From positions 94,233 through 158,232 of the forward strand of contig WREW01000001.1 of assembly GCA_009779135.1 (NCBI GenBank): a stretch of 64,000 nucleotides of DNA, given 5' to 3'. The notes beneath the pieces are model-generated. The model did no database searches. It was not told the DNA's origin and saw nothing but the letters and a program-made list of their open reading frames with translations. The stretch is from Alphaproteobacteria bacterium. Lineage in GTDB: Bacteria > Pseudomonadota > Alphaproteobacteria > UBA9219. The translations under genes and the position numbers were made by a program. Position 1 is the stretch's first letter. Each line of letters opens with the position of its first letter. Positions 10,839 through 63,222 of the stretch are shown piece after piece.

Positions 10839-10849
10839 GGAGCAAAAAC

Positions 10850-14129: not shown

Positions 14130-14376
14130 AGGCCTGTCTCCATGATAAGCGTCACTTATCATAATGTCAGACAAATATGCCTGTCAAACAAAGTTACACT
14201 ACCAAAAATAGGTAAGAATAGACCAAAAAAAGGTAGGGATTGCGGCAATTTCAAGGATTTCGAGGGATTCTTCTTAAAAACCGCGTTTTTGAACCTATCA
14301 AAATGAAAAAGAAAAATTGCTTTCATCCCATAAATTTGTTACGATATAAAAATAACGACTTAGGGAAAAACAAGCC

Positions 14377-14727
14377 ATGGACGACACAAAGCACCCCTTT
14401 AAAGAGCCCGCCTTCAATGATCTTTTGGAGGAGACTTTAACGCAAGCCAGCACCGGCCTTACAGCCGGCGAGATGCGGCTTTTAGTCTCGGGCGTTTCGG
14501 CCCTGCGCGGCGCGCCGACGCAAAAAACTCTCGGCACCATTGAATCCAATGCCTTACGCGCTCTGATGGATTATGTGGCCTACACGCAAAAGGCGGACAA
14601 AGAAGTCGTCCGCGCCCTTTTCCTGACCAAGTTTAACATCCAAACCCCCGAGCATCTCCCCACCGACCGCTACGACACAGCCGTAAACTTCCTGGTGGAT
14701 TTGCAGGTTTACAAGCATTTGAATTAA
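14377..14727 (+). CDS. hypothetical protein
   Basis: 116 aa ORF in a lower-GC segment; no recognisable motif. Confidence 0.3.
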   Translation: MDDTKHPFKEPAFNDLLEETLTQASTGLTAGEMRLLVSGVSALRGAPTQKTLGTIESNALRALMDYVAYTQKADKEVVRALFLTKFNIQTPEHLPTDRYDTAVNFLVDLQVYKHLN

Positions 14728-15045
14728 ACAATTCCGTTGAAAACATTAGGTTTAGTTAGCATTCCTTGACTTTCTGGGGGCGGGCTGGCAAGGTTAAGGA
14801 AAGGAGGGCGAGGCTATGGGTATTACGGAAGCATTTGTGTTTAGCGCAGCAATCCTAGGTGTTGGAAAGGTGTTGAAAGATGCCTACACCGAGTTTGTTG
14901 ATGGAAAAGAAGAAGTAGAGCGTCGCCGGGAAGCTGAAAAAAGGCATCAAGCCCGCTTACAAAGATGGGGCCGCTCACGCTCAGCGATGACTCAAAGCCA
15001 AAAACCCCCTTCGCCAGTTTAACATATAGGCTTATTTCTTACCAC

Positions 15046-15732
15046 TTAAAGACCAAGGCCATTGTCCTGTTTATTTCTTTTAGAAAAAATCCTTTCTATT
15101 TTCTTTTTCGTGTACTCTTTTATTTTAGCATAGTGAGATGAAAAGAAAGCGTGAGTGTTTTTAATCTTCAATTTTTCTAATGCCCTATCACGAAGTGCTT
15201 TCCTACTGTCTTTTGTCGTATAAAATGCTGCTGATGTCGCTATGGCAACTTGGAGTGTTTTTATTACAATATTATCCGCTCCAGCATTACCCCCTACAGT
15301 CTCAGGGAACCAATATTTTAAAGCCTCACCCGCAGCAGCTGGCAGGACAAAAATCCCACCGAGAAGTTCCAAGTACTTGAAACGCCCCTTATTCTCCAGA
15401 TATTCTCGCCGTTTCGTTACCTCTTCTTTGGCTTTCAAAAAAGCATCTTCTATGGATGTTATTTCTTGCTTGTATAAAACATATTGCGGACTTCCTTTTG
15501 GAAGTTGCTCATGAATAGCTCTTTGTATAGAAGGCGCGGGCTTTAATTCTTCAATGATCCTTTGTTCAAAATCAACGGGTTTCTTAAAAGAATACTTGCC
15601 TTCACGAAAGGGCAACATTTCTTCTTTTATCTTCAAAAGACTTTCTTGTGACTCTTCCATCGCCAAATCTATATCGAGCGATTTCGGATCAATTCCGTTT
15701 GTTTCGATTCCCTGTTGCATTTTGTACCCCAT
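15046..15732 (-). CDS. hypothetical protein (low-GC, likely horizontally acquired)
   Basis: 228 aa Lys/Glu-rich ORF in a conspicuously AT-rich stretch (14.2-15.9 kb); no known family recognised. Confidence 0.4.
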   Translation of the reverse strand: MGYKMQQGIETNGIDPKSLDIDLAMEESQESLLKIKEEMLPFREGKYSFKKPVDFEQRIIEELKPAPSIQRAIHEQLPKGSPQYVLYKQEITSIEDAFLKAKEEVTKRREYLENKGRFKYLELLGGIFVLPAAAGEALKYWFPETVGGNAGADNIVIKTLQVAIATSAAFYTTKDSRKALRDRALEKLKIKNTHAFFSSHYAKIKEYTKKKIERIFSKRNKQDNGLGL

Positions 15733-15933
15733 AAAATATTGAAACTATTTGTCTCAAGAGGCTTATTATGTCACAAAATTGGGGGTCATTTCAATTTTTC
15801 TATTACTTTCAATAGGTTAACAGAAGATTAACGCGATAAACAGCGGTTAACCTAGGGTCGTTTCGTTTCTGTTCAGAAACAATCGCTTGCCGTTCTTTTA
15901 TTCAACAGCCTTTAACTTATGACAGTTTTTTTG

Positions 15934-16671
15934 TTAAGGCATCTGCGGCAGCCGATCCTGCCGCGTCAGGGCCGTTGTGACTTCCATCGCTTTTTCCGGC
16001 GACATTTCGGCTAAAATAGGGGCGCTGCGGGCGGGTTTCATGCGTTTGACGACGCCGAGCAGGACATGCATATCCAAAGCTTCAAAAATGCGCGCCGCTT
16101 CTTTGGGTTTCATAATCTCGTAAATCTTCACAAGTGAATCGATTTGTGCCGCCTGCGCCGCGTCCGCCTGATTCAAAAGTGTTTGAAGCTGCGCGCGCAG
16201 CGTTTCCATTTCCTTGAGCTTTTGATCGACACGTTTTTCAGCCACTTCAAGCAAAGCCAGACGTTTGGCAAGCTCGCCTTCACGCTTGTCAAGTTCCTCG
16301 CGCCGCCCGCTAAGCTGTTTATAAAGATCGCTGTCCGGTGAAAGGGTCACCGGCGCGCTATAGCGCGGCTGGGGCGCAGGGGCAGGAGCGGCTTGAGGCG
16401 GCGCAGCTTCGGGCGTTGGCTGCGGTTGGGGCGCGGGTTCCGCCGTTGCCGCCTCTGGCTGAGGCTGCGTTTGCGGCGTTTCATCCGCCGCCTGTGAGAT
16501 TTTGACCGCGTGAAAAGGCTTGCCCGTTGTCATACTGTACCAGACATCGCCCAGACGCACACCCACCATCAAAACAGCCGTAAAAATCATGGCGGAGAGA
16601 AAGAACTTGGGCCGGTGCAGCAAAGTCAACATAGGCAAAGCATTTCCTTTATCCCTGCTTGGCCAGCGCAA
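15934..16671 (-). CDS. MotE-like flagellar protein (N-terminal TM, Pro-rich linker, coiled coil, MgtE-N-like C-terminus)
   Basis: Architecture and C-terminal IYEIMKPKEAARIFEALDMHVLLGVVKRMKPARSAPILAEM resemble alphaproteobacterial MotE; lies in the flagellar block. Confidence 0.45.
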   Translation of the reverse strand: MRWPSRDKGNALPMLTLLHRPKFFLSAMIFTAVLMVGVRLGDVWYSMTTGKPFHAVKISQAADETPQTQPQPEAATAEPAPQPQPTPEAAPPQAAPAPAPQPRYSAPVTLSPDSDLYKQLSGRREELDKREGELAKRLALLEVAEKRVDQKLKEMETLRAQLQTLLNQADAAQAAQIDSLVKIYEIMKPKEAARIFEALDMHVLLGVVKRMKPARSAPILAEMSPEKAMEVTTALTRQDRLPQMP

Positions 16672-29452: not shown

Positions 29453-30256
29453 ATGTTACAAGGTTGGATAGATGCCGCGATCATGGGCGTTGTGGAAGGG
29501 CTGACCGAGTTTCTTCCCGTCTCATCCACAGGCCATCTTTTATTGATGAATGAGATCCTGCATTTTGAAGGGCCTCAAGGCAATGTCTTTGAAATTGTTA
29601 TCCAATTCGGCGCGATTTTGGCCGTGGTTGCCGTTTATTTCCAGCGCTTGTGGCGCGTTGCGATCAAGGCCCCGCGCGATCCGCAGGCCAGACGATTCCT
29701 TTATGCCGTGTTGCTGGCTTTTCTGCCGGCCATGGTGATCGGTTTTTTTGCGCATGGTTTTATCAAGGCGGTTTTGTTCAATCCGATAGTGGTGGCTGTT
29801 TCTCTGGTGCTGGGGGGAATCGTCATTCTCGTGATCGAGAAAAAAGCACCCGTCCCGACCGTCCATGAAATTGAAGATATGCCTATGAAAACAGCTCTTT
29901 ACATCGGGCTTGCCCAATGCATTGCCATGATCCCGGGCGTTTCGCGTTCAGGCGCAACAATTATGGGATCGCTTTTGCTCAAAGTGGATCGCAAAACGGC
30001 GGCCGAGTTTTCCTTTTTTCTGGCCATCCCCACCATGGCGGCGGCCACAGCCTATGATTTGTATAAAAACTTCGGACACTTAACTGCAGATGACGGCATC
30101 GTAATCGCCATAGGCTTTGTGGTATCTTTTTTGGTGGCCTATGGCGTGGTCAAAACCTTTGTAGGCTTTATCAGCCGACATGGCTTTGCGCCCTTTGCGT
30201 GGTACCGTATTGTTATAGGCCTTGCAGCGATTATGGCCTTATTGGTTTTGAAATAG
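29453..30256 (+). CDS. uppP: undecaprenyl-diphosphate phosphatase
   Basis: VEGLTEFLPVSSTGHLLL and IPGVSRSGATI motifs of BacA/UppP; 267 aa polytopic membrane protein. Confidence 0.9.
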   Translation: MLQGWIDAAIMGVVEGLTEFLPVSSTGHLLLMNEILHFEGPQGNVFEIVIQFGAILAVVAVYFQRLWRVAIKAPRDPQARRFLYAVLLAFLPAMVIGFFAHGFIKAVLFNPIVVAVSLVLGGIVILVIEKKAPVPTVHEIEDMPMKTALYIGLAQCIAMIPGVSRSGATIMGSLLLKVDRKTAAEFSFFLAIPTMAAATAYDLYKNFGHLTADDGIVIAIGFVVSFLVAYGVVKTFVGFISRHGFAPFAWYRIVIGLAAIMALLVLK

Positions 30257-30416
30257 GCACAAAAAAAGTGAAAAAATTAAGTAACTGTTAAGCCAAAACG
30301 AACAATAAAAGAGGATGAAAGAATTGCCAGTCAAAAAAGTGGCATAAGGCGCAGCTTGCGCATAAAATAGGAAAGAAACCTGTAGGATGAGATTTGCTCA
30401 AGAGGAACGCCTTTTC

Positions 30417-30929
30417 ATGTGCCTGTCTCGAAAATTGATTCGCTTGCTTGTTGTTATGGCTGTTTTGCTGGCAAATCCGCTATCCTTTGCGCATGCGGCA
30501 GAAAATGACGATACGCTTGCGCCGCTTCTGGCGTGGCAGAACAAATATCCTTTTGATAAAATCGACGGGCAGGAGTTTTGGGACACCCCGGCCCTAGCCA
30601 CGCGCCTGCGCGCGATGATGGATTCCAAGGCCCATCAGTTTTTTAAAGATGAGCTGGCGCACGGCGTCGTCACGCCGCTTAATGCAAAAGACGGCATTCT
30701 TTATACCGAAATGTGCAAAGCGCATGATTGCGCTGCGGTTCATGTCTATCTTTTTGTGGATACGGAAGCGGACAAAGTTTATATATGCTGGCATGACGAA
30801 GCCGCCAGCCATGATTTGTGGCTGGAGAACGGCAAAACTGCGCAGCTGGAGAAAGGGAGTTGTGTTTTAAAAGAAGGCGAAAAAGACAATATGGATCTTT
30901 TAAGCCGTCTTCGTGGAGCAGGGGCGTGA
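30417..30929 (+). CDS. Ivy-like periplasmic inhibitor of lysozyme/lytic transglycosylase (putative)
   Basis: Signal peptide (LLVVMAVLLANPLSFAHA) and a CKAHDC loop matching the CKPHDC signature of Ivy-family inhibitors; ~170 aa; its stop overlaps the GTG start of the downstream SLT-domain gene (GTGA). Confidence 0.5.
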   Translation: MCLSRKLIRLLVVMAVLLANPLSFAHAAENDDTLAPLLAWQNKYPFDKIDGQEFWDTPALATRLRAMMDSKAHQFFKDELAHGVVTPLNAKDGILYTEMCKAHDCAAVHVYLFVDTEADKVYICWHDEAASHDLWLENGKTAQLEKGSCVLKEGEKDNMDLLSRLRGAGA

Positions 30930-32284
30930 AACAAAACGGGGTGTTTTTTCTTTCAGGCATAACGCGCAGGCTAGGCCTTCTAGCGCTGCTTGGCGGCGTT
31001 ATGTGTCTGGCTGCCCCCGCGCAGGCTTTGGCGCAGACGGCAAAGTTTTTCCCGAGCGGCGAAAGGGTTAAATCAGACGATTCACTGGAAATAATCCGCA
31101 AACGCTGTCAGGAAAACACTTATTACGATCAGATTTTTAATAGCGGGCGACCCAATGATCCCAACATGATGCTTGGCATCGCCACGCGCGAATCCGCCTG
31201 CAATCCCATGGCGAAGAACCCGTTATCTTCAGCTGCGGGCATCTGGCAGGTTCTGGCGAAAACCCACTGGCAATATTGGCAGTCCGTCATCAATGACCAG
31301 GCCAGAATTGAGGCGGCTAACAGCAGATTCTCGGGACTTGGCGGGTTTCTTTATTCAAGCAATCCGGCAGATCGCATGCGTGGCCTTTTGCATGGTGACC
31401 CCAAGCTTTCCACGGATGCGGGTTATAAAGTTTTTAATGAGCAGATGGGCTGGTGGGGCGGCACGCCGGAGGCTGGCATTTGCGGCTTTGCGGGCAGAGG
31501 CAAGATTTTCAAGGCGACGGGCGATTGCGATGCCCTGATGCCGGTGAAATATTACACTGCCTATTACAGCGGAAACCCTTGGACGATCGCGCCGGTCGTC
31601 AAGATTGAAGATCAGAATATCGGCAAAGCCCACCTGATTGATGACAGCGGCAAAGTCGTGGGCATGATTTTGGAATGTGAAGATCGCACCGGAAAGATCG
31701 CGGCCAGTTTGGCGAAGGCAGCCAAGCAATATGGCGTAAGCCGCTCTGATGTAGCGCAGCAGACTTTTGCAAACACCGTCGGTGAAATACATAAGGCCGG
31801 CGGCATTATGCCTACGGGGGATATAAGGGAAAAGTTTTGTCTTGATGATATGAGTCTTTCTTTTGACGCCTCGCGCGCTTTGCTCAGCGGCGCAAGATTA
31901 TTCAGCAGCATGATAAGCAATATTCTGAATAATATTCTGAATCAGGCTTGCGAGTTTGTGCGTTCAACGATTATGACGGCGATTGACAACATGCTCAACG
32001 TCATTTGCATTCCGGTGCCGGATTTTCACATGAGTCTTGATTTGCCGACCCTCCAGCGCAAGGGTTGTACCGGCGGGATGTCCATCGGCAACACGCTGGT
32101 CTCGCTGCAGACGATGCAGAGTCCGGCCATGGCTTCATACCATTTGCAGCGCGTGATGGCGGCCGGCCTTGACAAGATTGCTTCGCCGCGCATTAACGCC
32201 ATTGCCATTCGTAGCCCGCGTATGGGCGTTGGCCTTATGGGCCCCGCTTTTGACGTTTTAGCAATACCCACCAATAAACCATGA
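30926..32284 (+). CDS. secreted protein with N-terminal family-1 lytic transglycosylase (SLT) domain and a novel C-terminal domain
   Basis: GTG start with GGAG 7 nt upstream; signal peptide RRLGLLALLGGVMCLAAPAQALA; catalytic-region motif GIATRESACNP...AAGIWQV (ES ... G-L/I-x-Q); C-terminal ~120 aa paralogous to the product of 32281..33063. Confidence 0.6.
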   Translation: MKQNGVFFLSGITRRLGLLALLGGVMCLAAPAQALAQTAKFFPSGERVKSDDSLEIIRKRCQENTYYDQIFNSGRPNDPNMMLGIATRESACNPMAKNPLSSAAGIWQVLAKTHWQYWQSVINDQARIEAANSRFSGLGGFLYSSNPADRMRGLLHGDPKLSTDAGYKVFNEQMGWWGGTPEAGICGFAGRGKIFKATGDCDALMPVKYYTAYYSGNPWTIAPVVKIEDQNIGKAHLIDDSGKVVGMILECEDRTGKIAASLAKAAKQYGVSRSDVAQQTFANTVGEIHKAGGIMPTGDIREKFCLDDMSLSFDASRALLSGARLFSSMISNILNNILNQACEFVRSTIMTAIDNMLNVICIPVPDFHMSLDLPTLQRKGCTGGMSIGNTLVSLQTMQSPAMASYHLQRVMAAGLDKIASPRINAIAIRSPRMGVGLMGPAFDVLAIPTNKP

Positions 32285-33063
32285 CGACACGCAAGGAAAA
32301 AAGAGGTTCCGCCATGAAAAATGACACACAATCCCAAGCAAAATTACCCGCCCTTATCGCGCGTGCCTTATGTCTTGGCTTTATGATGTTTCTTTTCACC
32401 CCTGCCATCGGCGGCTTTTTGCTGTCAAACCCGGCCTTTGCGCAAAGTGACGCCTATCAGCAAGCCGGCGATCAGATGATGGCCGACGCGCTTGGTCTGG
32501 CAACTGATGAAGAATGCAAGCAGCTGATGGAGCAGATCAATCGCGGGCGCGCCGCTTACAATATAGCCTCAATCGAAGCGCAGAACACGGCTATGGAACA
32601 GGTTTTGATTGCAAACGCAGAAAATCCGATCAAGCTTCACCCACCTGTCCGCGAACGTTTTTGTCTGGATAATATTTTTGCCTCTTTCGATGCGGCGCGG
32701 GCGCTTCTGTCGGGAAAGAATCTGCTCGGCACGATTTTGGCGCAGTTTGACGGCTTGCTCAATCAAGCCTGCAACTGGATCGCAAGCAACATTAAAACGG
32801 CGGTTCAAAACGGGCTGGATGCCATCTGTATCCCGATTTCGCTGCCTTCGTTCAATCTTAGCCTGCCGACATCTTCGCTTTCGCGCAAAGGCTGTAACGG
32901 CGTTTCGCTCAGCAGCGTTCTAAGCATAGACGTCCGCGCAGGCCGTCCCAACTATTTCCGCTGGCCAAGACAATATATGGACGGTGCGGTGGCGCGTTGG
33001 GTTGATGATAATAGGGATACGCTTGGGCCTTATGGCCGGGGCATCTCAGGCCCGCGTTTCTAA
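32281..33063 (+). CDS. secreted protein carrying the same novel Cys-containing C-terminal domain
   Basis: RERFCLDNIFASFDAARALLSGKNLL...LNQACNW...ICIPISLPSFNLSLPTSSLSRKGCNG aligns residue-by-residue with the C-terminus of the preceding protein; N-terminal hydrophobic segment. Confidence 0.5.
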   Translation: MTTRKEKRGSAMKNDTQSQAKLPALIARALCLGFMMFLFTPAIGGFLLSNPAFAQSDAYQQAGDQMMADALGLATDEECKQLMEQINRGRAAYNIASIEAQNTAMEQVLIANAENPIKLHPPVRERFCLDNIFASFDAARALLSGKNLLGTILAQFDGLLNQACNWIASNIKTAVQNGLDAICIPISLPSFNLSLPTSSLSRKGCNGVSLSSVLSIDVRAGRPNYFRWPRQYMDGAVARWVDDNRDTLGPYGRGISGPRF

Positions 33064-33087
33064 ACGATGAAGAAGGAGAGCAGGTTC

Positions 33088-34617
33088 ATGCAACATCAAA
33101 CTTCGTTTTGGTCGCGGTGCCGCGCAAAGGCTATCCTTGTGGGGATCGTCTTTGCCCTGCTTCTTGCGCCACCGCAGCCTGCAAAAGCGGTGGTGGTGTT
33201 CGATCCGACGCAAACCGTCGCCACGATAGCGCAGTGGGTAGCAAAAGCCGCAGAGTACGCAACCAACTTAGCCGAGCTCGAAGCAATCTGGAGCGCCATC
33301 GAAACAGTCAGCGATACATTTGGCGGGTGGATGGATACGTTGACCGATCTGGTAAACGATCTGGCGGACATCAAGATTGCTAACATCAAAGCGGAAACGG
33401 AACTGGATACACGTCTGGCGGAAGCCGAGATTGAGGATTATACGGCAAACAAGATCGCCGAAGCCACCGCCAAAATTGCGCAAAGAGCCATGCCGTCAGC
33501 GCATCACGGCCTGTGCCGGCAGATCCGCGTTGAAAGCATGGGTGATGCCAGCATATCTTTTACGCAAAGCGTTGAAACGAAGATGATCGAAGCCCTCAGC
33601 GCGCGGGATCGTTGCCCGACATGCGATGGCGCGGGGCCTGCTTATTCGTGGACGCAGGCGGCCACGCGCGAAAAAGGCTCCTATCTCCACCCGCTTGAAG
33701 GTGGCGCGGACAGCCCGATGGCGGATGCGGATATCACCATGCCCAGAAATGAAAAACTATGCATACCGCTTATGCAGCGCGGCACTTGGGTTAATGAGGT
33801 TTCCGGCGTCAGCCTTGAAGTGATCGGCCCCAAAACGCCTGCCCCTTCAAATCTTTGTGAAAGGAGGTATCTGGCTGCGTGGGATTGGCTTACCAATCTG
33901 GCCGGATCGCGCCCGACGCCTCTGTCGGGCCAGCTTCTTCAGACGGATGAAGGCAACCGCCAGCGCGGCATGTATGTGCATTGTCTGGCCATGGAAAACA
34001 CCTTGCTGCAGCAATGCTCGCGCGTCATCGCCTTTCAAACGCGCCCCAACAAGGCAGATCCTTCCACAGAAGGCTTGATTAAACTACAGCAAAACTTTTG
34101 CAAGCTGATGGATGGAACACTCTCGCTTGAACCTTACGATAATTGCGAAAACGGCCTTAGTTTGCACGAGATCAACAGGATTGCGGGCGAGTCATGCAAA
34201 TCCATGGCTTATGCCGTAGGTCAAAAACATGACGGGGCCAGAAATCACGATGTGATGGAAAGCAGCGATATGTGTTCCTTAGCCTGGCGCGTGGCGCAGA
34301 TGTATGAAGATGATATTTATGCAACCTGCATGACGGCCATGGACGCGCTGGACGGCATTAAGAGCTGCTGGGCCGCTGTTGAAGGCGGGCAAAGAGGCTT
34401 TCGGGCCGAAGGTCAGCAGGATGAAAAATGGACACTTGTTTCCATGCGGGATGAATATGCCATGCATTCATCCAAGTTTTATAAGCCGCCCGTGGCCAAG
34501 TTGCAGCCTGTGGCCGGTTATCGCATGCAGCCTGTGCCGTCTGGTTTAGGTGCCATGCCGGTGGGCGTGCCTGCCAATGCGGATGATTTTGCCTGGCCCC
34601 AGACCAGCACGCCTTAA
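33088..34617 (+). CDS. cysteine-rich secreted protein, paralog family member 1 (novel family)
   Basis: AAGGAG RBS; signal peptide; N-terminal VFDPT motif then a long helical region; conserved core YLAAWDWLTNLAGSRPTPLSGQLLQTDEG shared with the next two genes; more than 20 Cys. Confidence 0.6.
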   Translation: MQHQTSFWSRCRAKAILVGIVFALLLAPPQPAKAVVVFDPTQTVATIAQWVAKAAEYATNLAELEAIWSAIETVSDTFGGWMDTLTDLVNDLADIKIANIKAETELDTRLAEAEIEDYTANKIAEATAKIAQRAMPSAHHGLCRQIRVESMGDASISFTQSVETKMIEALSARDRCPTCDGAGPAYSWTQAATREKGSYLHPLEGGADSPMADADITMPRNEKLCIPLMQRGTWVNEVSGVSLEVIGPKTPAPSNLCERRYLAAWDWLTNLAGSRPTPLSGQLLQTDEGNRQRGMYVHCLAMENTLLQQCSRVIAFQTRPNKADPSTEGLIKLQQNFCKLMDGTLSLEPYDNCENGLSLHEINRIAGESCKSMAYAVGQKHDGARNHDVMESSDMCSLAWRVAQMYEDDIYATCMTAMDALDGIKSCWAAVEGGQRGFRAEGQQDEKWTLVSMRDEYAMHSSKFYKPPVAKLQPVAGYRMQPVPSGLGAMPVGVPANADDFAWPQTSTP

Positions 34618-34630
34618 AGGAGAAGAGGGT

Positions 34631-36181
34631 ATGAAAAAACAATCTTCAAAAGGAATAAGAAAAACATGCGCCTTGTGCCTTTTGGCCGGTGCGCTCTTTT
34701 TCGCGCCGCCCATGCGGCCAGCTCATGCTCAACAGACAGTGTTTGATCCGGGAAACTTTGCCGCGCAGGCCGCAGCGTTCTTGGCAGAAACAGCTGCGAT
34801 GGTCGCGGAACATGCGCAGCAAGTGGTCATAAACGGAGCCATCGAAGCGTATAACCTTCTTGTTAAGCTAAAATTTGAATTTCTCAGTTCAGAAAAAGAA
34901 AAAGCGGCTTTTGCGGAGGAAACGGCCAGAAAAGCGAAAATGGAAAACAAAGTCCGCCTTCATGAAGCCAAGCAGGAAGCCAAAACCGCGACAGACACAG
35001 CCGTACGCATAGGCCAGATGGCAGCGGAAACAGTTGAAACCGGCGCGGAAAGCTATCTGGCCAGACAGTTTCTTTTGGCCAATACGACCCCGACATTGGA
35101 TGAGTTTCAAAAGGAAGTTGAAAACTTTATAGCCCTTATGATTAAAAGCCGCACGCGCGGCGTCAACTGGATGGGGATTTCGCCCAAAGCAGCTTGGCTT
35201 AATCATCTCGTGCGCTGCAAATATGGCTATGGCAGCGCCATTGACGGCTATCCGACAAACTGCATCAGCGATAATGAAAAACTGAGGGATGCGGATGTGT
35301 TGCCGATCAGGGAAGACATGGACCTTGAATTTCCGGCTTTGAAAATTGAGGAAAGGGATGAAAACGGCGAAAAAGTAAAATATGTTGTTTTCGAACCCGC
35401 AAATGACGAACAGGCGCTCTGGTACGCCAAAATGCACTATATCATCAACATTGCCGGCCCGCGCCCGGGCCCGCCTTCAGGCGCGAATCTGCTTAAAACC
35501 GATTCAGGCATGCGGGATATGGGCATCTTCGGCACGGCGCAAAGCCGCGACAGCGCTTTTATCCATGCCTTTGCCAAAAAGCTTGCCTATTACACGCGCC
35601 CCAATGACAGCACCGAAGATATGAAAACGCTGCGGGAGCATTTGAACAAAAGATGCGCCCTGACCCGTGGGGCTGACGGCGGCGACGGTATTTTCAGCGC
35701 AGAGCAGATCACAAACTTTTTCCATGACTGCACGAAGGGTCTAAGCGCCTATCAGCTGGATTACATCAACAACGCCATGTGCAAAAACCCGACCCACTAT
35801 CTTGCGCAGGCCATTGACGGTGCCAAGCCGTTTAAAATGTCGGACTCGACCATTCAATGTTCCAAAAACTACAATCTCTGGCGCCAAAGTCTGCTGGTGC
35901 GGGAAAGGGCCTTGATTGACGGCATCAATATTATACACAACAACAAAGGGCTGTGGTCGCAAATGGGTTCGGCAAGAATGGCCGGATGGGATTGGAAGAA
36001 TGATCCTGCCGGCACAGGCTATGCGCTGGTTCACGGTAAACAGGCGCTGCCTTTGCCGGCCGTGATTAAAGAAGCCAAAGCGCCCCTTTTCGAAGGGGAA
36101 AAGCAGCAGGTGCGCAAAGTACCTGTCGGCGTTCCTTTTGTGCTTGATTCCGATGGTCTTCCTTCAACCCTTGCGCCATAG
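34631..36181 (+). CDS. cysteine-rich secreted protein, paralog family member 2
   Basis: GGAG RBS; signal peptide CALCLLAGALFFAPPMRPAHA; QTVFDPGN motif; core LWYAKMHYIINIAGPRPGPPSGANLLKTDSG. Confidence 0.6.
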   Translation: MKKQSSKGIRKTCALCLLAGALFFAPPMRPAHAQQTVFDPGNFAAQAAAFLAETAAMVAEHAQQVVINGAIEAYNLLVKLKFEFLSSEKEKAAFAEETARKAKMENKVRLHEAKQEAKTATDTAVRIGQMAAETVETGAESYLARQFLLANTTPTLDEFQKEVENFIALMIKSRTRGVNWMGISPKAAWLNHLVRCKYGYGSAIDGYPTNCISDNEKLRDADVLPIREDMDLEFPALKIEERDENGEKVKYVVFEPANDEQALWYAKMHYIINIAGPRPGPPSGANLLKTDSGMRDMGIFGTAQSRDSAFIHAFAKKLAYYTRPNDSTEDMKTLREHLNKRCALTRGADGGDGIFSAEQITNFFHDCTKGLSAYQLDYINNAMCKNPTHYLAQAIDGAKPFKMSDSTIQCSKNYNLWRQSLLVRERALIDGINIIHNNKGLWSQMGSARMAGWDWKNDPAGTGYALVHGKQALPLPAVIKEAKAPLFEGEKQQVRKVPVGVPFVLDSDGLPSTLAP

Positions 36182-36189
36182 AGCAAAAA

Positions 36190-37545
36190 ATGCGCCCTGA
36201 AAAACGCACAGCCTTCCGGACATGGCCGCTTTTGATAGGCATCTTTTGCCTTGTGCTTTTGGCCTTTCCAGGACAGGCGAACGCGAGGCCGCTTCGCAAC
36301 GGTGACATTATTTTCGATCCCACCAAATTTGCGCAGTACATGATGGAAACGGGGCAGCAGATCGTCAAGATGGTCGAAAAAGGCGTGGAATATGCGCAAT
36401 CAACGGCGCTTTGGAAGATGACAAAAATGGCGCTGGATAAAGGCTTTGATCTTTTCGATGACGCCAACGACCTCGCCGCCAATGTTGATAGTTTTAACAC
36501 GAAAGTAAACGCAAACCTTGAAATGACATTGGCGGAGGATAAGAGTCAAACCGATACACTGGACACAATGACTCAAATTGAGGCCGACAAAGTAAAAGAA
36601 ACCGCTGAACCGCCGGCTACGGATCAATATCTGTGCAACATGCTGACAGCACGCTCGGTTGAACCTCATATGCGCGACTTTGCGAATATGGTTGCCGCGA
36701 TCGTCAAAAACGGCCATCGGGTTATTTACCGTGGGCCGGGCGATGACGGCACGGGCCCGCAATTCACATGGGATGCGATGAATCTGCGCGCGGGCAGGGG
36801 GGAGCTTACAAAGGTTCCGACCTTCAACCCGCTTGACGACCCGCCGCTGGAATGGCTGGCCCCCAGCAGTGACGATGTGGATATCGATATCGATTTCGGA
36901 ACGCTGAGCCGCTATATATTCAAACTTCCCAAAGGGGAGGCCACGACCAAAATAATAAATGGCGCGCCGGTGAATATTTTGGAAATGAAGCCCGAAGGTG
37001 AAGCCGAAATACGCTGGATCAAGGCCTATCAATATTGCCTCAATTTAGGCGGCCCGCGCCCCTCCATACCGGTTTCCACCCGCCGCACGGATTCCTATAT
37101 GCAAAAGGACGCAAAGTTCAAAAGCTGTCTGTCCCGTCAGGAAGTTTTTATCGATCAATGCGCCCAGCGTCTTGGCATGCTCACCAGACCTAATTGCGAC
37201 ACGGAAGATGAAGGCATGACGGCGCTATGCCAGATCGCCAAGGATGGCTGCGCCGCCGCAACCGATGCCGGCCTTGACCTCCCCCCCAATTTTGGGGATT
37301 GCGGTGACGGGCTCAGCCTTTTTGAGATCGTTTACCTTGATGACAAACTATGCGGCGCCCCCCGCCGTGGGCAGTCTCATACCCTGAGCGGCGCAAATTC
37401 AAGCAGCATCTCCGATACCCTTTATTTTTGTGAGGAATTGGGAGGCTTTTTAAAGAACTTGGTCAACCAGATAGATCAGGATTTTCTAAGGGCGCTGCGG
37501 GGTCTAAGCACGGTGGATGAATGTTATGCGGCCATAGGCCCCTAA
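36190..37545 (+). CDS. cysteine-rich secreted protein, paralog family member 3
   Basis: Signal peptide; DIIFDPTKF motif; core IRWIKAYQYCLNLGGPRPSIPVSTRRTDS; Cys-rich C-terminal region. Confidence 0.6.
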   Translation: MRPEKRTAFRTWPLLIGIFCLVLLAFPGQANARPLRNGDIIFDPTKFAQYMMETGQQIVKMVEKGVEYAQSTALWKMTKMALDKGFDLFDDANDLAANVDSFNTKVNANLEMTLAEDKSQTDTLDTMTQIEADKVKETAEPPATDQYLCNMLTARSVEPHMRDFANMVAAIVKNGHRVIYRGPGDDGTGPQFTWDAMNLRAGRGELTKVPTFNPLDDPPLEWLAPSSDDVDIDIDFGTLSRYIFKLPKGEATTKIINGAPVNILEMKPEGEAEIRWIKAYQYCLNLGGPRPSIPVSTRRTDSYMQKDAKFKSCLSRQEVFIDQCAQRLGMLTRPNCDTEDEGMTALCQIAKDGCAAATDAGLDLPPNFGDCGDGLSLFEIVYLDDKLCGAPRRGQSHTLSGANSSSISDTLYFCEELGGFLKNLVNQIDQDFLRALRGLSTVDECYAAIGP

Positions 37546-37655: not shown

Positions 37656-38504
37656 ATGGATGAAATGCAACAAGATCTTCAAAACGATTCTCAAGCGCGC
37701 TTGCGCGCCACACTGGTGTCTTTCCGCGACATCGGCCAACCTCTGCTTCAAGGCCTGATGGAAGTCGAAGGCTTTGGCGAGGACAAAAAACAATTCACCC
37801 CGCAAGAGCGCGCGGCGATGTTTGAGGAGCTGGTTGAAAGCACAGTCATGCTCAGCCAAAAACTCGCGGAAGAAATAACGCAGCAGCAGCAGGATCTGGA
37901 TAATGCCGCGCGTTGGGGCCTTGCCTCTGCGGCGGCGCAGGTTGTGGCGGCCGCCTTTAAAACATCCGGCGAAGCGATGACAGCGGAAGACGCAGACGTC
38001 CTTGTGTCCTTGGTCACGCAGTTGCAGGACAGATTCAAAGGCCAGATACCGGCAAACAGCAGCGGTGCGCTCAGCAGCGTGGCCATGTTCCGCGCCAAGA
38101 TGATGGAGGCCTTTGTGCCGGTCATCGGCGCTGTGGCACAATATGCTTTTGGCCGTGGCGAGCATGAGCTTTTGGCGGAAGTGAGTGAGCGCCTTGTGAA
38201 AATGGCCGATCAGGTCACCCGCACACTGGCCGCCCCCGGCAGCACGCCTGAGCAATGGCGCCTTTTATGCTGGAATGTTTTGCGCGCGGCCGGACAGATT
38301 TATACGGAAAGCCACTATGCCGAGGCCGACCGGATTCTTTACATGAACCCGCAGGAACGCTCCATCTATCTTGCGCAGCATGGCCAGATGGTTCCCATGA
38401 CGCAGGTGTGGCAGGCTTTTAACCAGCGCATGGCCATGCTGGCCACACTGGCCGCCTATCTTAAAGTCCCCGAAACGGCAGGTTTTGAGAAAGAAATCTG
38501 GTGA
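37656..38504 (+). CDS. hypothetical cytoplasmic protein
   Basis: 282 aa; acidic; no signal peptide or TM; sits between secreted-protein genes and the transglycosylase. Confidence 0.4.
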   Translation: MDEMQQDLQNDSQARLRATLVSFRDIGQPLLQGLMEVEGFGEDKKQFTPQERAAMFEELVESTVMLSQKLAEEITQQQQDLDNAARWGLASAAAQVVAAAFKTSGEAMTAEDADVLVSLVTQLQDRFKGQIPANSSGALSSVAMFRAKMMEAFVPVIGAVAQYAFGRGEHELLAEVSERLVKMADQVTRTLAAPGSTPEQWRLLCWNVLRAAGQIYTESHYAEADRILYMNPQERSIYLAQHGQMVPMTQVWQAFNQRMAMLATLAAYLKVPETAGFEKEIW

Positions 38505-39012
38505 TGTGATGGTCGCTGAAAAAGCCATACTCGCATGTCTTCTTCTCGCCGCACACACCTACGAGGTTCCGCCGGCCGTTATGGTCGGCATCAGGCATGT
38601 GGAAGGCGGCTATGTCGGCGCGCAGATCGGCCCCAACCGCAACGGCACCTATGATCTTGGCATCATGCAGGTCAACACGCTGTGGATTCCCGCTTTGGCG
38701 CGCGCTTGGCAGGTGGATCATAAAACAGCGCATCAGCTTGTGCGGGATGACGCCTGCGTCAACATGCGCGTATCAGCATGGATTTTAAAGCAAAAGATCA
38801 GGGAAGCGCGCGGTTCGCTCTATGGCGGAATCGCTTATTATCATTCCTCGACCCCGGGAATCGGCGCGCGCTATGCGTCCAAAGTGCTTACGGTGCTCGC
38901 AAACAAAGGTCTTTTGAAACGGGACTATGCAAAGCCCGATCAAAGAGCTTATTATGCCAGTGCTGATTCTCTTCCGCAGCCCCAGCAGGGCAGGGAAGAC
39001 GTAAGACAATAA
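38485..39012 (+). CDS. lytic transglycosylase (VirB1 / R64 PilT-like, SLT domain)
   Basis: Signal peptide; IRHVEGGY ... YDLGIMQVNTLW ... AYYHS catalytic-Glu and GLMQ-type motifs of transfer-associated lytic transglycosylases. Confidence 0.7.
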   Translation: MRKKSGDVMVAEKAILACLLLAAHTYEVPPAVMVGIRHVEGGYVGAQIGPNRNGTYDLGIMQVNTLWIPALARAWQVDHKTAHQLVRDDACVNMRVSAWILKQKIREARGSLYGGIAYYHSSTPGIGARYASKVLTVLANKGLLKRDYAKPDQRAYYASADSLPQPQQGREDVRQ

Positions 39013-39027: not shown

Positions 39028-39990
39028 ATGGTTCGCATGAAGGCCTTAAAGTTTGGACGTGCCAAAGGGTATTTTTTAGCGCTTTTCCTGGCCTTTGGTC
39101 TTTTTGCAAGTTCGGCGGCCCAAGCGCAGATTATTCCGCCGCCGCCTTCTATGGCCGCCGCGCTGCAGACGCTTTTTTCTATTAAGGAGCCGGCGCCGGA
39201 TGTGATGAGCGTTCCCGCCCTTTCCAATCTGATTAAAGGCGGCGCGTCACTTTACCATCTGGGCCAGCGCTCGGACATGCATGGCTGGCTGATTGTGCAA
39301 GATGGCCGTATCCAGATGATTTATCTTTCGCCTGATAAACAAACGGTTTTGATCGGCGGCATGTTTTCCTCTCAGGGCGACAATGTAACCTCGCCGCAGG
39401 TTGAATCCCTGCTTGACCGGAATGGCGAAGTCCGCGCGATTTTTGAAGGCCCTTCAAACCAAGCACAGGCGCAGCAGCCCTTGCCATCCAGCCAGCCATC
39501 CGCGCAACCCCCGCAGGAAAATCTTTCACCCGGGGAGCGTTTGATGCGCGATATTCAGGCCGCCTCTTCCGTAACATTGGGCGGTTCGACGAAAGCGACG
39601 CTTTACATGGTGGTGGCACCAAGCTGCCCCAACTGCAAAAGCACTTGGAAGGAGCTGAAAGACGCCGTTACGCAAGGCCGCCTGCAGGTTCACTTGATTC
39701 CGGCCTACAATTCTGAAGGCCCGAATGAGCGCGCCATGGCCGCGCGCCTTCTTCGCGTTGACAACCCGCTTGAGGCATGGAACCGTTTTGTTGACGGCGA
39801 CAATCAGGCCCTTGTCGGGCAAGCGCAGCCACAGGATCTGGAGGCTGTCGATAGCAACATGAATCTGATTAGCAAGTGGAACATTCAAGGCTTTCCCTAT
39901 CTGGTTTATCGTGGCCGCGATGGTCAGGTGAAAATCGTTCAGGGCCGCCCGCAGCGTATCGGCGCTGTGCTTGATGACCTCCCGCAATAA
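39028..39990 (+). CDS. thioredoxin-fold disulfide isomerase (TrbB/DsbC-like)
   Basis: Signal peptide; CPNC active-site motif in VVAPSCPNCKSTWKEL; R64 TrbB and F TrbB are thioredoxin-like proteins of conjugation systems. Confidence 0.55.
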   Translation: MVRMKALKFGRAKGYFLALFLAFGLFASSAAQAQIIPPPPSMAAALQTLFSIKEPAPDVMSVPALSNLIKGGASLYHLGQRSDMHGWLIVQDGRIQMIYLSPDKQTVLIGGMFSSQGDNVTSPQVESLLDRNGEVRAIFEGPSNQAQAQQPLPSSQPSAQPPQENLSPGERLMRDIQAASSVTLGGSTKATLYMVVAPSCPNCKSTWKELKDAVTQGRLQVHLIPAYNSEGPNERAMAARLLRVDNPLEAWNRFVDGDNQALVGQAQPQDLEAVDSNMNLISKWNIQGFPYLVYRGRDGQVKIVQGRPQRIGAVLDDLPQ

Positions 39991-40323: not shown

Positions 40324-40434
40324 GAAAAAGGGCTGTTTTTTGTGAAAGCGTTAGCGCATGTAAACTGTTGTAACGAATCTTTGGGTGCTTTATAAGTTAT
40401 GGGGCTTCATGAAGGACAAGTAAGGAAGGACCTT

Positions 40435-40944
40435 ATGATAACGTCAAAACTCTCTTATGGCTTGGCTTTAGGCGTGCTTGGCTTAGGTTTGAGCGGCTGC
40501 GGCTCGTCGGACTATTTTACATCATCATCGCGCTCTGTTGCGGTGCAGCCTGATCTTGTCAGTTTAAGATTGGCGCAGTCGGCTGAGAAAGCGTCCAAAG
40601 CGCTTGATGTCATAGCGGGCATTGAACAGGTGCGCGCCCCGCAGCTTCCTGCGGTGGAAGATTACAGCATGGCGCCGCCGGCCCTGCAGCAATTTATCAC
40701 GGTGCGCTGGAACGGCCCGATTGAACAGATCGTTGAAGTTCTGGCAGGCCGCGCCGGTATGAGCTTTGCGACAAGCGGCCAGCCTGCGCCCGTTCCCATT
40801 CTTGTGACGGTGGATGTTTATCAAAAGCCTTTGATTGAGGTTCTCCAAGGCATAGGTCTGCAGGCCGGACGCCGTGCGGATCTTGCCGTGAATGCTCCCA
40901 ACAATGTGATCGAGATCCGTTATGCGCCGGTTGATAGAATCTAA
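40435..40944 (+). CDS. DotD/TraH-like outer-membrane lipoprotein (T4BSS core)
   Basis: GGAAGGA RBS; lipobox LGLSGCGSS; C-terminal N0-like block RWNGPIEQIVEVLAGRAGMSFATSGQ...PILVTVDV...LIEVLQGIGLQAG...IEIRYAP resembles DotD; followed by DotC- and DotB-like genes as in dotDCB. Confidence 0.65.
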   Translation: MITSKLSYGLALGVLGLGLSGCGSSDYFTSSSRSVAVQPDLVSLRLAQSAEKASKALDVIAGIEQVRAPQLPAVEDYSMAPPALQQFITVRWNGPIEQIVEVLAGRAGMSFATSGQPAPVPILVTVDVYQKPLIEVLQGIGLQAGRRADLAVNAPNNVIEIRYAPVDRI

Positions 40945-41785
40945 GAAACAAACCACGATGCTGCTTGCTTTCGGCGTGATGCTTTTGGCGCTGAACACAG
41001 GGATGGCCTACGCGCAGCAAACTGTCGCTTTGGAAGCCTCCCCGCCGCCTCCGGCCCTGCAGGAGCTGCAGGAACAATCCGTGGGCGACAAGCCGGACAA
41101 AAGCTCGACCGTGGGCCTGCAGATTCGCGGCGATGCCTTGCGCGAAGCTGCTTTGTCTTATGGCGCGCGCGGCGGCCTTGCCTCCAGAACGTTTGAGATC
41201 CAGCGCCGCCTTGTTGAGCATCAAACAAGTCTTGGCAAAACATTTGATTTCAACAAACTCCTGATCTCTGCCCCCTCGGGGCTTTTGATTGAGCCGCCTA
41301 TTGTCTCCGAAGCGCAGCGCGCTGTTTTGGTCGGCTCAAGCGGTCAGGAAGCGGCTGTTGCGGATCGCATTTTCCGCATCAATCAGGCGGCGCGCATTGT
41401 GACCGCGCCGAGGGATTGGCGTCTTTATCTTGAACGCGACTGGGGCCGTGTGGATCCTCCCCCCTCTCTGCTTCTTCCCAAAGACAAGGATGAGCGGGAG
41501 CTGTGGCGTCAACTGGTGCAAGAAGGATGGGATGCCGGCATTGAGCAGGCACAGGAAATCTTTGAAGCCGATCTTGATCGTTTAACAAATGACTTTGTAG
41601 GGATGGTGCGTTATCGCGAGCTGCTTGCGCAAGGCATGATATCACCGCCTTATGCGATGCACGAGGACCGCGGCGTTACGGGCGGCGGGAAAGAGATGCG
41701 TGTAGGTGATCGCGGTGTTGCGATTACCGGACCTTCCGTTCTTATTCCTCGGAGCCAGATGTGGACGACGACGCCCCAACAGTAA
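40922..41785 (+). CDS. DotC/TraI-like T4BSS core protein
   Basis: Signal peptide; ALREAALSYGARGGLASR matches the conserved DotC/TraI block; 287 aa; position between the DotD- and DotB-like genes. Confidence 0.7.
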   Translation: MRRLIESKKQTTMLLAFGVMLLALNTGMAYAQQTVALEASPPPPALQELQEQSVGDKPDKSSTVGLQIRGDALREAALSYGARGGLASRTFEIQRRLVEHQTSLGKTFDFNKLLISAPSGLLIEPPIVSEAQRAVLVGSSGQEAAVADRIFRINQAARIVTAPRDWRLYLERDWGRVDPPPSLLLPKDKDERELWRQLVQEGWDAGIEQAQEIFEADLDRLTNDFVGMVRYRELLAQGMISPPYAMHEDRGVTGGGKEMRVGDRGVAITGPSVLIPRSQMWTTTPQQ

Positions 41786-43134
41786 AGCCACCGAAAGATT
41801 CATCCAAAGACAAGGTTTCGGTGGATAAGGAACATGCGTTCCTCGCCGGTTGGGAGGATGAGCCCCTACGCATCCAACCCGAACATGTGGATGATCTTCT
41901 TTTGTGGTGCATCAAAGCGCGCTCCACGGACATCAGCTTTCAAACAGACAGGCCTGTGACGATCGAGGTGGACGGCGTCCTCTATCCCGTCACGCGGCGC
42001 TCTTTGGATTCGGCGGATCTGACGAATATTTTGATGAAAATCTACGGCCCCGATGCGCTGGCCAAACTGGCCTCGGGAACGGATCTTGATTTATCCTACG
42101 AAGTCAGGCCGGAGCGGCTGACGCGCTTTCGTTTCCGCACGAACATCACGGCGATTTTAAGTCGCGGGCGTGATTCGGTGCAGATCACCATGCGTGTTTT
42201 ACCTTCTTTGCCGCCCACCATGCTGGAGCTGGGCATTGAAGATGAAATTATCCGCAACTGGTCGCCGCGTCAGGGATTGGTTTTGGTGACAGGCCCAACA
42301 GGAAGCGGCAAAACAACGCTTTTGGCCTCGGGCTGCCGCATGTTGATCGAACGCAAGCAAGGCTGCGGCAAGCTTTTGACCTATGAAGCGCCGATTGAAT
42401 ATGTCTATGACACGATCACGGGCGAACATTCGCTTGTCGCGCAGTCGGAGATTCCGCGTCACATAGGATCCTTTGCCGCCGGTGTGCGCAACGCGCTGCG
42501 GCGCAAGCCCAACATTATTCTGGTGGGTGAAGCGCGCGACCGTCTTACGATGTCGGCCGCGATCGAAGCAGGACAAACAGGCCATCTTGTTTATTCAACC
42601 GTTCATACGGTCGGCGTGGCGGCCACGGTACGGCGTATTGTCAGCGTTTTTGAACCATCAGAGCGCACGGAGCGCGCCTATGCCCTGATGGAAACGCTGC
42701 ACATGATTGTAACGCAAGCCTTGGTGCCGCGCAAAGGCGGCGGACGCATAGGCTTGCGTGAATATCTGGTGATTGACGACAACATCCGCGAGCAGCTTTT
42801 AGACATGCCCGTTGACCGCTGGACAGCGGAAGTCCAGCGTTTTCTTGTACGCTATGGGCGCACCATGGAGCAAACGGCCAACAAGGCTTTTGAAGACGGA
42901 AAGATTGACCGCCAGACCTATCTTTTCCTGACCAAGGGCCTTTCGGGCGAAGAAAGCCTGCTTGAGGAAGAAGCAGAGGAAAAAAGCCCGAAAAAAGGCA
43001 AAAGCGCTGCCAAAACCAAAGAACCACCCCCCAGCGAACCCTTGACCTACAAGGACGTCCTGCGCGCTGTCGATGAACTTGATCTTCAGGAAACCCCAGA
43101 TCATCCCGACGACGACGACACCACAATGATCTAA
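41761..43134 (+). CDS. DotB/TraJ-like secretion ATPase (PilT/VirB11 family) with extended acidic/Lys-rich C-terminal tail
   Basis: Walker A GPTGSGKTT; Asp box; ILVGEARD; His box YSTVHT; 457 aa, ~80 aa longer than Legionella DotB; tail EEEAEEKSPKKGKSAAKTKEPP...DDDDTTMI. Confidence 0.85.
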   Translation: MDDDAPTVKPPKDSSKDKVSVDKEHAFLAGWEDEPLRIQPEHVDDLLLWCIKARSTDISFQTDRPVTIEVDGVLYPVTRRSLDSADLTNILMKIYGPDALAKLASGTDLDLSYEVRPERLTRFRFRTNITAILSRGRDSVQITMRVLPSLPPTMLELGIEDEIIRNWSPRQGLVLVTGPTGSGKTTLLASGCRMLIERKQGCGKLLTYEAPIEYVYDTITGEHSLVAQSEIPRHIGSFAAGVRNALRRKPNIILVGEARDRLTMSAAIEAGQTGHLVYSTVHTVGVAATVRRIVSVFEPSERTERAYALMETLHMIVTQALVPRKGGGRIGLREYLVIDDNIREQLLDMPVDRWTAEVQRFLVRYGRTMEQTANKAFEDGKIDRQTYLFLTKGLSGEESLLEEEAEEKSPKKGKSAAKTKEPPPSEPLTYKDVLRAVDELDLQETPDHPDDDDTTMI

Positions 43135-59369: not shown

Positions 59370-59543
59370 CGAAGGAAAAAAAGAGCGAAAAGAATAAATT
59401 AGGCCCAAAAAAAGAGAGAAAATTTCTCTCTTTTTTTATAAAAATTAACGAGGTCTTTAATAGTTTCATGCACAATAGTGGGTAGGAATGTGTCATAATA
59501 AAGGCATAAGGTTTAACAAAGCCTTTTTTTGGGAGTTGGTACG

Positions 59544-63144: not shown

Positions 63145-63145
63145 T

Positions 63146-63222
<77 letters not shown>

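Follow-up and report, generated by a model that had tools for sequence, protein, structure and literature searches.

We analysed a 64,000-nucleotide (nt) stretch of the 302-kb contig WREW01000001.1 (assembly GCA_009779135.1, positions 94,233 to 158,232 of the forward strand), hereafter referred to as the window, from a metagenome-assembled genome labelled only 'Alphaproteobacteria bacterium'. Three consecutive open reading frames (ORFs) stand here at the head of a type IVB secretion system (T4BSS) locus and encode an Ivy-like protein (ORF1), a protein with a lytic transglycosylase signature of the SLT type (ORF2) and a paralogue of the C-terminal half of ORF2 (ORF3). The features of this region are listed below.

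30339–30368, + strand: weak candidate for a sigma-70-like promoter, GTGGCA-18-TAAAAT (consensus match and two-sequence alignment)
30417–30929, + strand: ORF1, secreted Ivy-like protein of 170 amino acids (aa) (profile, family alignment and model)
30714–30731, + strand: codons of the CKAHDC loop of ORF1, aa 100–105 (sequence; in register with CKPHDC of Escherichia coli Ivy)
30926–32284, + strand: ORF2, exported protein of 452 aa with a signal/anchor segment, a divergent SLT-type domain, a linker and a Cys module
31103–31570, + strand: SLT-like catalytic domain of ORF2, aa ~60–215 (approximate, with inferred limits)
31823–32086, + strand: four-cysteine C-terminal module of ORF2, aa 300–387, FCxD…LNQxC…ICIPxP…RKxCxG
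32281–33063, + strand: ORF3, exported protein of 260 aa, paralogous to the C-terminal half of ORF2 and lacking the enzyme domain
32647–32913, + strand: four-cysteine module of ORF3, aa 123–211

ORF1 runs from the ATG at 30417 to the TGA at 30929, and an alternative ATG at 30387, giving 180 aa, is the start called by NCBI. The GTG start of ORF2 at 30926 lies 7 nt downstream from a GGAG sequence and overlaps the ORF1 stop codon (GTGA), and the ATG of ORF3 likewise overlaps the ORF2 stop codon (ATGA). The NCBI call for ORF2 also has 452 aa, whereas that for ORF3 begins 11 codons downstream (32314) and yields 249 aa; the labels are hypothetical protein for ORF1 and ORF3, and lytic transglycosylase domain-containing protein for ORF2. 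An earlier interpretation made from the letters alone (the sequence-only reading) had described a secreted protein of about 170 aa with a CKAHDC loop, the stop codon of which overlaps the GTG start of a 452-aa protein, and both points are borne out by these coordinates.

ORF1 and ORF2 as Ivy-like and SLT-type proteins

The N-terminus of ORF1 is a hydrophobic signal peptide with a cleavage site between …LSFAHA and AEN (read from the sequence), and several of its homologues have a lipoprotein-type signal (…VGC, …MGC). The protein is therefore predicted to be exported to the periplasm, as expected of an Ivy protein. Among 1.84 billion representatives, 127 relatives of ORF1 were identified in an exhaustive HMMER search. 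Residues C100, H103, C105, C124, W135 and C149 are kept in at least 90% of 45 aligned family members, and the loop histidine and both loop cysteines are invariant in the eight closest homologues. A search of PDB sequences with the single ORF1 sequence yielded no relevant match. With the family profile, the four top PDB matches were the Ivy entries 1gpq, 1xs0, 4ps6 and 1uuz (E values of 0.035 to 0.06), and the C-K-x-H-D-C of the family was aligned in register with the CKPHDC of these four proteins. The precomputed annotation, which uses a newer Pfam release, also assigns ORF1 and its homologues to PF08816, some of them only weakly.

The AlphaFold model of ORF1 generated from the family alignment (predicted local distance difference test, pLDDT, 90.9; predicted template modelling score, pTM, 0.80) places CKAHDC in a loop between strands 94–100 and 108–115, and the proposal that this motif lies within an Ivy-like fold thus agrees with both the model and the register of the alignment. 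From the conserved cysteines, the disulfide pairs C100–C105 and C124–C149 are predicted. The loop conforms to the C-K-P-H-D-C pattern of Ivy, with its disulfide deduced from the cysteine positions, and, judging from the model, ORF1 appears to combine the Ivy fold with an Ivy-type loop. It is only 12–18% identical to the solved Ivy structures (YkfE, Ivyp1/Ivyp2; PF08816), and it belongs to a peripheral Ivy-like subfamily below the Pfam membership threshold, which differs from Ivy in an extra N-terminal helical segment, with W-x-x-K-Y-P-x-D-K…FW, and in a second cysteine pair (C124/C149). Matches to parts of ORF1 were also observed within two larger proteins. In P0037 (3,928 aa), residues 55–98 were matched 13 times, and P0125 (755 aa) contained seven matched stretches, the best-scoring on residues 93–131, so that pieces of the Ivy-like domain are also found tandemly repeated in large proteins.

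ORF2 has a hydrophobic, signal-like N-terminus, and a signal/anchor segment is present in ORF2 and ORF3 of all orthologues. The Pfam SLT profile (PF01464) matched aa 77–120 of ORF2 with 27.3 bits (cut-off 21.3; E value 2.9e-6), in agreement with the family-1 SLT region recognised in the sequence-only reading, and three PHROG transglycosylase families matched aa 77–140 (E values of 1.8e-5 to 8e-4). Motif I reads ATRES, with Glu89 encoded at nt 31190–31192, and motif II reads AAGIWQV. In seven ORF2 orthologues, 20–27% identical overall, Glu89 of the (R/H)-E-(S/T) motif is invariant; the glutamine of the A-x-G/C-x-x-Q motif is retained in six of the seven, and a motif-III-like C-x-[YF]-x-G is conserved among the orthologues (ICGFAGRG in the window, LCRYNGQ in locus L006). 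An hhalign comparison of ORF2 with the TrbN-like SLT of the same locus aligned motifs I to III in order, at a level that was not significant (E value 0.092). ORF2 thus appears to carry the catalytic Glu of the E-S/T motif followed by the G-x-x-Q typical of SLT enzymes, and this putative catalytic assignment is well supported by motif conservation. We consider ORF2 to be an atypical modular SLT, distinct from the TrbN/VirB1-type enzyme of the locus. Word-indexed protein searches with ORF1, ORF2 and a five-sequence profile gave, apart from the query, no more than one or two relatives; P0004, retrieved in one of them, is a common type of chromosomal SLT-like protein with unrelated neighbouring genes.

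The four-cysteine module shared by ORF2 and ORF3

Residues 300–383 of ORF2 and 123–207 of ORF3 are 49% identical (E value 2e-24). The recurrence of the ORF2 C-terminal domain in the following 260-aa protein, claimed in the sequence-only reading, is thus confirmed, but not the size of about 120 aa given there, since the strongly conserved core extends over only ~85–90 aa. A weaker similarity continues for ~50 aa further upstream, up to a fifth conserved cysteine (C251 in ORF2, C79 in ORF3), and ORF3 is therefore in essence ORF2 reduced to its C-terminal half, with no enzyme part. Being unpaired within the module, this fifth cysteine might form a bond between two molecules. An alignment of the core in five sequences revealed four invariant cysteines in the pattern [FY]CxD…C…C[IL]PxP…RxxCxG. 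The module had been regarded as uncharacterised, and it indeed had no match in Pfam, NCBIfam or PDB sequences. A search with a hidden Markov model of the module gave two copies, no more and no fewer, in each locus and no further match in the 64-kb window. Scans of metagenome contigs with a degenerate four-cysteine DNA pattern (which does match loci L005 and L006) and with the ORF2 alignment found nothing, and a structure prediction for the module from a three-row alignment was unusable (pLDDT 33). The C-terminus of ORF3 is GISGPRF in the window and in L005, and a similar GLMGPAF is found near the end of ORF2 (window 32236–32284 and 33040–33063).

In the six genomes compared, the ORF2 and ORF3 modules of the same genome were 42–93% identical to each other, versus 19–44% for modules of different genomes. 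The best match of each module was its partner in the same genome, with the marginal exception of ORF3 from L009 (44% identity to ORF3 from L005, versus 42%). In L013, the two copies (9531–9825 and 10606–10900) form a 295-nt direct repeat with 93% DNA identity. This pattern of identities indicates that the modules have been homogenised within genomes, by gene conversion or by a strong co-evolution of the pair, and suggests recurrent gene conversion between the adjacent ORF2 and ORF3 genes.

The type IVB secretion locus and its counterparts

The genes downstream from ORF3 are as follows.

33067–37545, + strand: Cys-rich paralogues ORF4 (33067–34617), ORF5 (34628–36181, or from a GTG at 34550) and ORF6 (36190–37545)
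37656–38504, + strand: ORF7, 282 aa, without a family match (57–62% identity across the array)
38485–39012, + strand: second SLT, TrbN/IagB-like (family profiles)
39028–39990, + strand: DsbC/DsbG-like thiol:disulfide isomerase (family profiles)
40399–43134, + strand: DotD/TraH, DotC/TraI and a DotB-type ATPase, the first recognisable core T4BSS genes

They are followed by a pilus block, two DotI genes, DotH and a TrbI/DotG-like gene. The Pfam matches of these genes include DotD (E value 1.1e-25), T4SS_TraI (2.6e-75), T2SSE, DotI (in two genes), DotH (2.6e-69) and a TrbI-like family, and the type IVb pilus families PilL, PilN, PilO, PilQ, PilR and PilS were also matched, which identifies the system as I-type (type IVB). 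The complement of DotC, DotD, DotB, DotH, DotG and DotI homologues that defines an I-type locus thus appears to be present, and the placement of ORF1 and ORF2 at the head of a type IV secretion system (T4SS) locus, already made in the sequence-only reading, is upheld. ORF4 to ORF6 are tandem paralogues (~25% identity; E values of ~1e-25), secreted and Cys-rich, of ~450–520 aa, with a V-F-D-P motif in the N-terminal region after the signal peptide; no family match was obtained for them, apart from a faint DUF4141 match on ORF5. ORF7 had no Pfam, NCBIfam or plasmid match; since it is as conserved as DotD, it probably forms a lineage-specific part of the core of this T4BSS. The second SLT matched TrbN (E value 5e-22) and IagB (3.7e-11).

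We examined the genomic contexts of the closest Ivy-like relatives. The order Ivy-like gene, ORF2, ORF3, ORF4–6, ORF7, small SLT, thioredoxin-fold protein, DotD and DotC was found to be conserved in independent contigs, this array being present in L005, L006, L008, L009–11, L012 and L013/14, besides the window, and gene-by-gene orthology across the loci was confirmed by BLAST. ORF1 and ORF2 are thus neighbours in at least seven independent lineages of distantly related, uncultured bacteria, at only 20–34% identity, and in each of them the pair opens this T4BSS array. The short contigs L002 and L007 end just after the Ivy-like gene, with a signal-peptide gene starting 3–7 nt downstream. The more distant Ivy-like proteins (L003, L015) are solitary, and the link to ORF2 is therefore specific to this subfamily; a scan of genome contigs found only two distant, solitary Ivy-like genes.

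The head of the array diverges rapidly. In the same loci, identity to the window is 31–34% for ORF1, 23–27% for ORF2 and 27–31% for ORF3, and the best match of each of ORF4 to ORF6 is 26–34% identical (lower-ranked paralogue matches falling to ~19%), versus 57–62% for ORF7, 59–68% for the small SLT and 62% for DotD in the stable core. The three contigs L009, L010 and L011 differ at only 14 positions in 20 kb, all in the region formed by the end of ORF5, ORF6 and the start of ORF7 (L009 15344–17568), and 10 of the 14 lie within 376 nt; this cluster is a local hot spot of variation or a recombination patch.

The gene upstream from the Ivy-like gene is uppP/bacA in the window (29453–30256) and in L002, and an O-antigen-ligase-like Wzy_C gene in six other loci (L006 3–566, L007 2–682, L008 283–1485, L009 8677–9888, L012 1–944 and L013 6700–7881). 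Both kinds of gene product act on undecaprenyl-linked glycans, and Wzy_C-family enzymes also glycosylate type IV pilins, an activity that could connect them to the pilus block of the locus. The spacer between uppP/bacA and the Ivy-like gene (window 30271–30348, L002 ~948–1030) has kept three exact blocks, AAAAAATTAAGTAA, GTGAAAGAATTG and TGGCATAAG, whereas the flanking proteins are only ~54% identical between the window and L002. The last of these blocks overlaps the promoter-like GTGGCA-18-TAAAAT. A sigma-54 promoter was also considered for TGGCAT…TTGC in this spacer and was rejected, since the GG-to-GC spacing is 15 nt rather than 10 nt.

These contexts bear on the role of ORF1. Ivy is defined as an inhibitor of C-type lysozymes, the histidine loop used for this function is conserved in ORF1, and other Ivy-like family members stand alone in ordinary chromosomal contexts. 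ORF1 might thus serve as a defence against the lysozyme of an animal host, and it would lie next to ORF2 because envelope functions are co-regulated, with no direct interaction between the products. However, the adjacency to ORF2 in the T4BSS-linked subfamily survives both ~30% identity and the switch of upstream neighbour between uppP and Wzy_C, and the stop and start codons overlap in two lineages, so we find a role of this kind very unlikely.

In a tblastn search of 72,556 plasmids, DotC matched 3,668 of them, mostly conjugative, the best alphaproteobacterial one being typed MPF_I. In the same search, no match was found for ORF2, ORF4 or ORF7, and ORF1 had one weak, solitary match on an unrelated plasmid. 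The Acetobacter plasmid pAPA01-020 (MPF_I), which is among the closest plasmid systems, has no such head before DotD. On this sequence evidence, the head cassette appears to be missing from plasmid I-type systems. Housekeeping genes flank the locus in the window: suf, pepN, flagellar genes, polA, tRNA-Gly and uppP precede it, and tyrS and tRNA-Arg follow it. A Pfam scan of window ORFs, which did not cover every ORF, revealed no integrase or relaxase, and the ORF at 61055–61783 had no family match. We also considered whether the cassette belongs to a mobile element integrated at tRNA-Gly and rejected this possibility, given the housekeeping flanks (polA, uppP, tyrS) and the lack of an integrase or relaxase in the scanned ORFs.

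Some further observations concern the remainder of the locus. A GcrA-like ORF (53187–53693; cell-cycle regulator family), with a Pfam score of 26.8 bits against a cut-off of 26.9, lies between the pilus and DotI genes. A 441-aa coiled-coil protein and a DUF6750 protein (58044–60563) close the locus, and their apparent counterparts lie upstream of the array in L009 (52–2661); the DUF6750 pair was confirmed by Pfam, and the coiled-coil pair is matched by size and position only. In L009, groES, groEL and other housekeeping genes lie between these counterparts and the array, and the locus is therefore split or rearranged between lineages. The GC content of the window dips locally to 0.44–0.45 at 14001–16000 and 62001–64000, from a background of ~0.53.

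A proposed inhibitor encoded with its cognate enzyme

An Ivy-like fold and loop in ORF1, an SLT signature with an invariant Glu in ORF2, a duplicated module and a conserved gene order are the observed elements on which our interpretation is built. We propose that ORF1, as a divergent and Sec-exported representative of the Ivy structural family, most likely acts as a dedicated periplasmic inhibitor of the ORF2 enzyme, and we assign this proposal a probability of about 0.5. The co-encoding of an inhibitor and its cognate enzyme is supported by the recurrence of the Ivy-like/ORF2 adjacency in seven lineages despite low identity. The rapid divergence of ORF1 and ORF2 next to a stable core may likewise reflect the co-evolution of an inhibitor and its target.

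According to this proposal, ORF1 and ORF2 would be produced from one transcript, with their synthesis probably coupled in this genome because the stop and start codons overlap, and both proteins would be exported to the periplasm. The disulfide-clamped CKAHDC loop would then place His103 into the SLT cleft of ORF2, beside Glu89, and the blocked enzyme would be kept from nicking the peptidoglycan of the producer until it is engaged elsewhere. ORF2 would be held or partnered through its four-cysteine C-terminal module; as the same module forms the core of ORF3, the two proteins probably pair or bind the same site of the secretion apparatus. The DsbC/G-like isomerase of the locus would fold the Cys-rich proteins. 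The binding and inhibition of ORF2, its interaction with ORF3 and the origin of the wall to be cut, from the producer or from a target cell, are inferences. The cassette itself forms an accessory module that heads the locus in one chromosomal lineage of T4SS of the I-type (Dot/Icm- or IncI-like).

Several known systems show similarities to this arrangement. VirB1 has a non-catalytic C-terminal extension (VirB1* in Agrobacterium), as does ORF2, and ORF2 resembles VirB1, TrbN, IagB and R64 PilT in having a family-1 SLT signature inside a secretion locus. However, the conventional member of that group is here the gene at 38485–39012, and ORF2 is two to three times larger, far more divergent, and carries both a module duplicated in the next gene and an inhibitor-like partner. 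Classical ivy genes are generally known as stand-alone and stress-regulated, whereas ORF1 is found in a fixed pair with one SLT-type enzyme inside a T4BSS locus. Regulation by Rcs has been documented for classical ivy, and the Ivy proteins of Pseudomonas aeruginosa inhibit the lytic transglycosylase MltB in vitro (PMC10139938). The closest parallel in logic is the SagA/PhiA pair of Brucella abortus, in which the autolysin of an alphaproteobacterial T4SS is associated with a small Sec-exported periplasmic inhibitor related to lysozyme inhibitors (PMC8334348). Nevertheless, SagA is a muramidase rather than an SLT, PhiA has the eight-stranded MliC/PliC barrel without the inhibitory motif rather than the Ivy fold (PMC8334348), and the pair serves a VirB (type IVA) machine, whereas the locus described here is type IVB. 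Full-text searches of the literature found no link between Ivy or other lysozyme inhibitors and type IVB systems.

Several results weigh against the inhibitor–enzyme proposal. The Ivy profile match anticipated in the sequence-only reading was found for ORF1, but with 14.8 bits it falls below the Pfam cut-off of 21 (PF08816; E value 0.032) and it covers only aa 95–125. Among 45 family members, only three matched Ivy with an E value of 0.01 or less, and a Foldseek search of the PDB with the ORF1 model was not significant, with Ivy in second position (E value 0.056; TM-score ~0.47). The SLT match of ORF2 is partial (profile positions 12–54, 43 of 117), only two of the seven ORF2 orthologues matched the Pfam SLT profile with an E value of 1 or less, and PDB sequence and profile searches with ORF2 yielded no relevant match. 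The 4-nt overlap between the ORF1 stop and the ORF2 start is restricted to the window and L013, and the called gap in other loci is 3–40 nt; in L012 it is 206 nt, although the open frame extends back past the stop codon of the Ivy-like gene. The precedents are also equivocal, as E. coli Ivy is a weak inhibitor of lytic transglycosylases for which a direct interaction was not detected (PMC10139938), and PhiA did not inhibit SagA in vitro (PMC8334348). Finally, a conventional, well-conserved SLT (38485–39012) is already present in the locus, and a second wall-cutting enzyme is therefore not obviously needed for assembly of the machine.

The partial SLT similarity, with most ORF2 orthologues below profile detection, could also mean that the proteins are non-catalytic assembly parts, the Ivy-like fold serving as a periplasmic chaperone or adaptor for ORF2 to ORF6, and the SLT-like domain merely binding glycan as an anchor. 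Such a role would be in keeping with the secreted, Cys-rich nature of ORF2 to ORF6 and their co-conservation with the DsbC/G-like isomerase. However, the catalytic Glu and the following Ser/Thr are retained in all seven ORF2 orthologues at 20–27% identity, and the conservation of the ORF1 histidine and loop cysteines (at least 90% of 45 members; eight of the eight closest) fits an active-site-directed inhibitor better than a chaperone. Structural roles alone for these proteins are therefore quite improbable.

The presence of a conventional SLT, already available for insertion of the machine, and the much faster evolution of ORF1 to ORF6 relative to the core machine genes, as is often the case for antagonistic or exposed proteins, are also compatible with a toxin–immunity pair. 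ORF2, possibly with ORF3 to ORF6, would then be a Sec-exported, disulfide-bonded cargo directed against the peptidoglycan of neighbours and released by the T4BSS or its pilus, the Ivy-like protein would confer immunity, and the shared C-terminal module would be the domain by which the cargo proteins are recognised or secreted. The layout is immunity-like, with a small periplasmic protein (with a lipoprotein-type signal in several homologues) directly upstream from a wall-degrading enzyme, and a C-terminal module on adjacent proteins recalls the antibacterial T4SS effectors of Xanthomonas. In these X-Tfe/X-Tfi pairs, which are characterised by the XVIPCD domain, a wall-degrading enzyme is likewise encoded next to a small periplasmic protein, and the C-terminal domain is common to neighbouring effectors. 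However, X-Tfe proteins have no Sec signal, their recognition by the VirD4 protein of a type IVA system taking place in the cytoplasm, whereas ORF2 and ORF3 belong to a type IVB locus and have a signal/anchor segment and conserved cysteines, suggesting periplasmic folding, and effectors dependent on a coupling protein are normally cytoplasmic. Furthermore, X-Tfe-type domains occur in many effectors, and the module described here has just two copies in each locus and no other in the window. In seven lineages, the cassette occurs as a single copy, in strict synteny, before the structural genes, unlike typical variable effector arsenals, and no coupling protein or relaxase was detected among the scanned window ORFs. 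We consider cargo release of this type rather unlikely.

A further possibility is that ORF2 to ORF6, Sec-exported and disulfide-bonded, are assembled in the periplasm and leave the cell through the type IVB machine or its thin pilus, much as pertussis toxin is secreted, with ORF2 as a peptidoglycan-cleaving warhead against neighbouring bacteria, the Ivy-like protein as its immunity factor and the concertedly evolving module as a recognition or assembly handle. We consider this unlikely; if true, it would be the first case of a type IVB system acting against bacteria and of an Ivy fold serving as an immunity protein.

The association of a peptidoglycan hydrolase and an inhibitor with a secretion system is of an already known kind. 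By contrast, the head array of this chromosomal type IVB lineage, composed of an Ivy-like gene, a modular SLT, its enzyme-less paralogue and three Cys-rich paralogues, is undescribed, and the four-cysteine domain, homogenised between two adjacent genes in each genome, is new. The purpose of Ivy is unsettled between defence against animal lysozyme and control of the lytic transglycosylases of the cell itself, since inhibition in vitro is known, but in vivo evidence of a cognate enzyme is lacking (PMC10139938). The locus described here contains an Ivy-like protein genetically tied to one SLT-type enzyme in at least seven lineages, and thus provides a defined pair for a direct test of self-control.

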